This document shows, piece by piece, positions 9,871-9,977 of a stretch of DNA of 15,120 nt (the stretch's first letter is position 1; each line of letters begins with the position of its first letter). The DNA comes from a virus (taxonomy: Duplodnaviria > Heunggongvirae > Uroviricota > Caudoviricetes): the IMG/VR virus record IMGVR_UViG_2713896902_000007, positions 1-15,120 of that record, one strand, 5' to 3'. Made by a program: the position numbers and the translations under genes. A model generated the notes under the pieces. That model saw only the letters and a list, made by a program, of their open reading frames with translations, did not search any database and had not been told where the DNA came from.

Positions 9871-9977
9871 GGGTGAACAGTGGTGAACAGACGGTGAACA
9901 GTCATTACTGCGATTGTTCACCATTTAACTTACTGTATTACTTATCTTTTTTCTTATGGTGAACAGAGGTGAACAGT
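9871..9977. repeat. ori-like iteron cluster (six GGTGAACA/TGTTCACC octamers)
   Basis: ggtgaaca at 9872-9879, 9882-9889, 9893-9900, 9959-9966 and 9969-9976, plus inverted tgttcacc at 9915-9922, all in an AT-rich context. Same octamer as in the crr-like region about 4.9 kb away. Confidence 0.65.

Follow-up and report, generated by a model that had tools for sequence, protein, structure and literature searches.

The two octamer clusters of the window, i.e., the whole stretch of 15,120 nucleotides of viral DNA analyzed here, are very probably the two parts of the bipartite origin of the P4 replicon, carried by a P4-like satellite prophage beside ssrA in an E. coli chromosome, a reading in which function is assigned by homology. 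The feature is already known: P4 ori1 and crr are textbook biology and their presence here is not a discovery. Little is at stake in a finding that re-identifies elements known from work of the 1980s and 1990s and already labelled in GenBank; it does confirm that an iteron origin can be recognized from raw sequence by careful reading.

Positions 4861-12186 align without rearrangement to positions 4291-11624 of P4 (X51522), at 97.3% identity. The P4 record places six features named 'ori type 1 repeat' at 9310-9413, inside its 'rep_origin', and describes the 'crr (cis required region for replication)', 4291-4590, as two 120-bp direct repeats with ten further type 1 repeats; the older P4 records X02534 and X05623 agree with it on the annotation of the origin. 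An earlier note, made from the letters of the sequence, had read the clusters as the ori plus crr of P4, and direct homology supports this (the 97.3% identity, the P4 annotation, the iterons and an alpha protein 99% identical). The same note spoke of 'ori-like' and 'crr-like' segments, which names the right kind of feature but is too weak, as these are the orthologues of P4 ori and crr.

Iterons at ori1 and crr

The octamer GGTGAACA/TGTTCACC has ten exact matches on the two strands of the 15,120-base window, where 0.51 would be expected (sd 0.66; 200 dinucleotide shuffles of the window, none of which exceeded 3). Six of them lie in ori, four in crr and none elsewhere. Copies with one mismatch number 16, four in crr and 12 outside the two loci, the latter against a shuffle mean of 11.7 (all match kinds). 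With no exact copy outside and no excess of one-mismatch copies over the shuffles, the octamer is confined to ori and crr; this is the outcome of the both-strand count that the earlier note had asked for, and no comparable density occurs elsewhere. The features of the first locus are the following:

9872-9975, no strand: ori1 iteron array of type I iterons (GGTGAACA), exact matches, equal to the P4 'ori type 1 repeats' 9310-9413
9872-9879, + strand: ori iteron 1, exact octamer
9882-9889, + strand: ori iteron 2, exact octamer
9893-9900, + strand: ori iteron 3, exact octamer
9915-9922, - strand: ori iteron 4, exact octamer, inverted
9958-9965, + strand: ori iteron 5, exact octamer
9968-9975, + strand: ori iteron 6, exact octamer
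9923-9957, no strand: AT-rich spacer of 35 bp between iterons 4 and 5, 17% GC

Base-by-base alignment and coordinate mapping give six octamers that are the same as those of P4 in sequence, orientation and spacing. The spacings of 10, 11, 22, 43 and 10 bp are in phase at ~10.75 bp per turn. At 17% GC, against 55% across the P4-homologous part of the window, the spacer at 9923-9957 is the likely place of DNA unwinding; it has the same 35-bp length in P4 and differs from it at 3 positions. Tocchetti et al. (1999) reportedly delimited the minimal P4 ori1 to a 35-bp AT-rich region and six iterons in helical phase. Five direct iterons and one inverted, helical spacing and an internal AT-rich segment are likewise what the window holds, and the five-plus-one count of the earlier note is borne out by the exact matches at 9872-9975. 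Six close relatives have nearly invariant iterons and polymorphic DNA 25-140 bp away, a pattern that suggests selection on the iterons.

The second locus lies ~4.9 kb away, centre to centre, a distance on which the earlier note and our mapping agree:

4861-4980, + strand: crr direct repeat 1, 120 bp (repeat family; P4 annotation 'crr 120bp direct repeat'; alignment)
4893 (-) and 4954 (+): exact iterons of repeat 1 (octamer matches)
4884, 4936 and 4968: degenerate iterons of repeat 1 (mapping onto P4)
5042-5161, + strand: crr direct repeat 2, 120 bp (repeat family; P4 annotation; alignment)
5135 (+) and 5149 (-): exact iterons of repeat 2 (octamer matches)
5065, 5074 and 5117: degenerate iterons of repeat 2 (mapping onto P4)
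5175-5200, - strand: rho-independent terminator of the alpha transcript, between alpha and crr (hairpin GACCGGCATCTGCCGGTC followed by T8)

The two ~125-bp direct repeats that had been described at 4857-5164 are real, but their length is 120 bp and their limits are those given above; they are 78% identical and their starts are 181 bp apart. The octamer was said to occur again inside them, which holds for four exact copies, but crr also has six degenerate ones, so that all ten crr iterons of P4 are retained. There are four exact crr iterons here versus five in P4 and 5-6 in two close relatives. Compared with P4, the iterons at 4936, 5074 and 5117 each have one extra mismatch to TGTTCACC; the one at 5074, for instance, reads TGTTCACA in the window and is an exact TGTTCACC in P4. 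As in a P4-type replicon, the two 120-bp iteron-bearing repeats are found downstream of alpha, directly past its terminator, which corresponds to 'talpha' (4604-4628) of P4.

Replicon proteins and the element around them

The replicon genes and the genes on either side of ori are the following:

5208-7541, - strand: alpha, 777 aa, initiator with primase, helicase and C-terminal origin-binding domain; 769/776 residues identical to P4 alpha
7556-7876, - strand: cnr (ORF106), 106 aa, copy-number regulator; translation identical to P4 ORF106
9327-9593, - strand: vis (ORF88), first gene leftward from PLL; 86/88 residues identical to P4 ORF88
10145-10879, + strand: sid, first gene rightward from Psid; corresponds to P4 sid 9583-10317

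The alpha reading frame is full length, 99% identical to P4 alpha and adjoins crr; from residue 451 on, its sole difference from P4 is the second-to-last residue. Residues 671-770 match PDB 1KA8 (E=1.1e-63), the solved P4 alpha domain, whose structure paper calls it an origin-binding domain in its title, as given in the reference list of PMC2777425. It is known that a single alpha chain unites primase, SF3 helicase and winged-helix DNA-binding functions, and that it binds the P4 origin repeats, unwinds and primes (PMC2777425, PMC4234260); the title of Ziegelin 1993, as cited in PMC8628076, also speaks for its published role at the origin. Immediately upstream of alpha, where P4-type replicons have it, lies cnr. 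Delta shares 163/166 residues with its P4 counterpart, and Vis, Delta, sid, psu and the integrase are all intact reading frames. Every sequence component of the P4 replicon is present and intact, and we infer alpha binding and the replication function from near-identity to P4.

The best chromosomal matches to the window are a P4-like satellite prophage beside ssrA. Away from ssrA, the element runs integrase, variable cargo, psu, delta, sid, ori, vis, immunity region, epsilon, cnr, alpha and crr; the features that define the P4-like satellite family (PMC8628076) are all present, and from right to left the window reads int, hotspot, psu, delta, sid, vis, epsilon, cnr, alpha. Of 5,426 complete E. 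coli genomes, 1,068 carry the ori segment 9640-10150, in the chromosome in every case and never on a plasmid, a prevalence in keeping with the published account of P4-like satellites, in which they are abundant in chromosomes and share a conserved core organization (PMC8628076). The core CTGTTCAC is also repeated in two P4-like elements that are more distant, at tRNA-Sec and ssrA, with 4-5 copies in the spacer of vis and sid and 2-4 copies downstream of alpha, which indicates that the bipartite layout is a trait of the family.

DNA left of ~4545 is unrelated to the satellite. The genes of the left flank and the integrase of the element are placed as follows:

1-555: pinE-type DNA invertase, left flank
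613-1437, - strand: LEM-3-like GIY-YIG protein, left flank
1747-3222: Dcm-type C5 methylase, left flank
3257-4471, - strand: EcoRII-type restriction endonuclease, left flank
13927-15120, - strand: integrase of the element

The left flank (1-4471) is a restriction-modification island, which adjoins phage-tail remnants in related genomes. The 404-aa frame at 3257-4471 was considered as the integrase, being placed beside crr like int on the P4 map, and was rejected: it is the EcoRII-type restriction enzyme, outside the element. A terminator-like AAAAAACCCGCATAAGCGGGCTTTT is located at 4546-4573, where homology to other ssrA-site satellites starts, and resembles the ssrA terminator region; at 4775-4797 there are GTATACC-type repeats (CGTATACCTAA and CGTATACCAAT), such as also adjoin the integrase gene in relatives. 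These two places probably represent the attR core and arm sites for the integrase; the search for an att core returned one 12-mer, one imperfect terminator-like match and the arm-type repeats. At the other end, a 527-aa frame (12294-13877, +) occupies the known psu-integrase defence hotspot and matches the PADLOC candidate family HEC-07 (E=7e-29), with no match in Pfam; the relative AR_0013 has at this cargo position a gene of 1,809 bp, with the annotation DEAD/DEAH-box helicase.

Late promoters and the repeat block beside ori

The iteron array lies between two divergent promoters, in a region with these further features:

9696-9713: TGT-N12-ACA dyad upstream of the leftward late promoter PLL, presumed Delta/Ogr activator site, identical to P4
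10055-10072: TGT-N12-ACA dyad upstream of the rightward late promoter Psid, identical to P4
10093-10110: third TGT-N12-ACA dyad, candidate second Delta site, identical to P4
9731-9780: repeat block upstream of PLL, 10-bp-phased (...GCTCTGGAAG GGGCTGGAAA...), replacing the three 'ori type 2 repeats' of P4

P2 late promoters, which need Ogr for their transcription, have TGT-N12-ACA as their published consensus (PMC3931495). The pattern occurs nine times in the window versus 3.5 expected, a number reached in 1 of 200 shuffles, so that by itself it is weak evidence. Around all three dyads the sequence is identical to that of P4. The earlier note had located the first two dyads correctly and had set the origin between divergent late promoters, and this placement holds, given that the dyads have P4-identical surroundings, with vis/ORF88 on the left side and sid on the right. 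It had also remarked that initiator and late-promoter sites share about 400 bp. The dyads do span 377 bp, and this is a known property of P4, but the note missed the helper-responsive repeat block that lies there as well. With ori1 between PLL and Psid, some 380 bp hold the Delta dyads, the repeat block and the initiator sites together. The third dyad, absent from that note, comes 38 bp after the Psid dyad, and the sid start codon (10145) follows it at 35 bp; it may be the second Delta site reported for Psid.

Identity to P4 drops in two places only, to 74-88% at 9651-9849 and to 72% at 9060-9150. The latter patch, against 97% overall identity to P4, sits between two Rfam matches and could mean an immunity specificity different from that of P4:

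8992-9079, - strand: C4 antisense RNA (P4 CI RNA family), Rfam
9178-9268, - strand: isrK / c4-a1b1, Rfam

The former place holds the repeat block. In P4, the block 90-140 bp left of the iterons carries Cox boxes, whereas the window has another allele. The P4 type 2 repeats (P4 9176-9205; TTAAAGTCA, TTAAAGCCA and TTAAAGCAA, every 10 bp) fit the P2 Cox-box consensus TTAAA(G/C)NC(A/C) at 9, 9 and 8 of 9 positions, with boxes in register at 9180, 9190 and 9200. Boxes of this consensus are spaced 10-11 bp, and a P2 Cox site upstream of P4 PLL has been tied to derepression of the P4 prophage (PMC3936717); it is by way of these boxes that P2 Cox activates P4. No phased Cox boxes were found in the window, where a lone, isolated 8/9 match lies on the opposite strand. 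The block of the window is also 10-bp-phased and at the same position as the P2 Cox boxes of P4 PLL, but its sequence is different, of a CTGGAA type (GCGCCAGATA GCTTTAAAAC GCTCTGGAAG GGGCTGGAAA), and a third allele, seen in strain USMARC-51688, consists of four CTGGAAGG-like units. SNPs linked to the alleles reach ~9845. All three are frequent in E. coli (361 genomes with the window type, 439 with the P4 type and 277 with the third type) and together make up 1,156 of 1,281 copies of the ori region. The allele of the block is not associated with Vis, epsilon or the integration site. Vis was rejected as a protein tracking the allele, with the same WP_001149160.1 found beside the window type (AR_0013) and the P4 type (SA31-1, RM12761); co-variation with epsilon was rejected too, window 8461-8760 being 97-100% identical to P4 despite the differing allele.

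We put forward, with more doubt than belief, the idea that the block between the PLL dyad and the iterons is an exchangeable helper-sensing cassette, with three common alleles of which only that of P4 has P2 Cox boxes, and in which the allele of the window docks a Cox/Apl-type protein of a different P2-like helper, possibly of the WPhi type. The Cox protein of WPhi does not bind P2 Cox boxes, has its own 12-nt direct repeat in the Pe-Pc region and does not activate P4 (PMC5009727), and it was this published specificity that led us to ask whether the non-P4 alleles match other helpers. In the switch region of WPhi, CCTAGAAAGGAC and CCTAGAAGGGAC stand 20 bp apart and give a candidate 12-nt repeat, CCTAGAA(A/G)GGAC, distinct from the WPhi C operators TATTGGTGAC (PMC1904263). 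The patch of the window has one match to this 12-mer, at 9/12 positions (threshold of at most three mismatches; ~0.08 expected per patch), which is not significant because the motif was chosen after the fact. Its 9-bp core CTGGAAGGG (CTRGAARGG) occurs once in the window, at 9762 within the patch (0.40 expected per whole window), as well as in the patch of the third allele and twice in each of two WPhi-type switch regions. The P4 and P2 sequences compared lack it, as do all switch regions of the pro483 class. The AR_0013 variant of the window allele, however, fails the motif, which was defined after looking. The core shared by the non-P4 alleles and the WPhi direct repeat is a suggestive lead to a helper match, through weak tests and a post hoc motif. 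Hexamer counts gave no CTGGAA repeats in seven C-cox switch-region loci (P2, WPhi and five others, covering three Cox classes, with fiAA91-ss left out for an IS21 upstream of B). Position-weight matrices scored z 2.3 for the known P4/P2 pair and at most 1.5 for the new alleles, and BLAST of the patch against the phage collection returned chance-level matches only. If the idea were true, each satellite lineage would be woken only by the matching class of helper; alleles acting as helper-specific sensors would explain how satellites are partitioned among helpers and would provide a sequence marker predicting which helper mobilizes which satellite. The tri-allelic block beside ori might be the sole item here worth further work.

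Alternative readings, operation and relation to known origins

A satellite that resides in a chromosome may also be an inherited relic, i.e., a cryptic prophage whose origin no longer fires (through lost quality of the crr iterons, for example) and whose conservation reflects recent descent. The three extra crr mismatches relative to P4 and the one fewer exact iteron would fit with such decay, as would the fact that P4-like elements are very common chromosomal residents (those 1,068 of 5,426 genomes), some of which may well be defective. We nevertheless hold this to be very improbable: the six ori iterons are exact and conserved next to DNA that is polymorphic 25-140 bp away, alpha is full length and 99% identical, Cnr is identical, and the frames of Vis, Delta, sid, psu and the integrase are intact.

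It is harder still to believe that the octamers are mainly transcriptional operators regulating PLL and Psid, with a secondary origin role or none at all. The array does lie between two divergent activator-dependent promoters, and other one-turn-spaced direct repeats of this family, such as the Cox boxes and the Apl operators, are transcription-factor sites. Yet the octamer recurs 4.9 kb away, past the alpha terminator, at a place for which the P4 record shows no promoter; that record labels the two loci 'rep_origin' and 'cis required region for replication', and alpha carries the domain published as the P4 origin-binding domain.

The preferred reading, a P4 bipartite origin, suggests how the locus would operate. 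The element being an integrated prophage, its origin is presumably seldom active. Upon derepression and excision, alpha would bind the type I iterons (TGTTCACC) via its C-terminal winged-helix domain. The six helically phased iterons of ori1 would put alpha beside the 35-bp AT-rich spacer, where the duplex could be opened and primed, and the crr iterons, 4.9 kb off and past the alpha terminator, would act as a second alpha-binding locus, one that P4 requires in cis. Cnr would modulate the binding of alpha and so limit copy number; we take the protein at 7556-7876 to be the copy-number regulator working with alpha, as in the P4 literature.

The nearest known system is P4 itself, which has the same placement of ori between vis/PLL and sid/Psid, crr past the alpha terminator, an alpha 99% identical and a Cnr 100% identical. 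The two differ in that P4 sits at its own attachment site, whereas the element of the window is at ssrA with a different integrase module and different cargo in the psu-int hotspot. Distant auxiliary iteron clusters are also a property of iteron plasmid replicons, e.g., P1 with incA and R6K with its multiple origins. In general layout, these plasmids are like P4 in having short direct initiator sites, phased with the helix, beside an AT-rich segment and with a second, distant cluster. They are unlike P4 in their initiator, which in P4 is a fused primase-helicase with a C-terminal winged helix and not a Rep-family protein. The role of the distant cluster also differs: crr is required for P4 replication, whereas its counterparts in iteron plasmids only inhibit.
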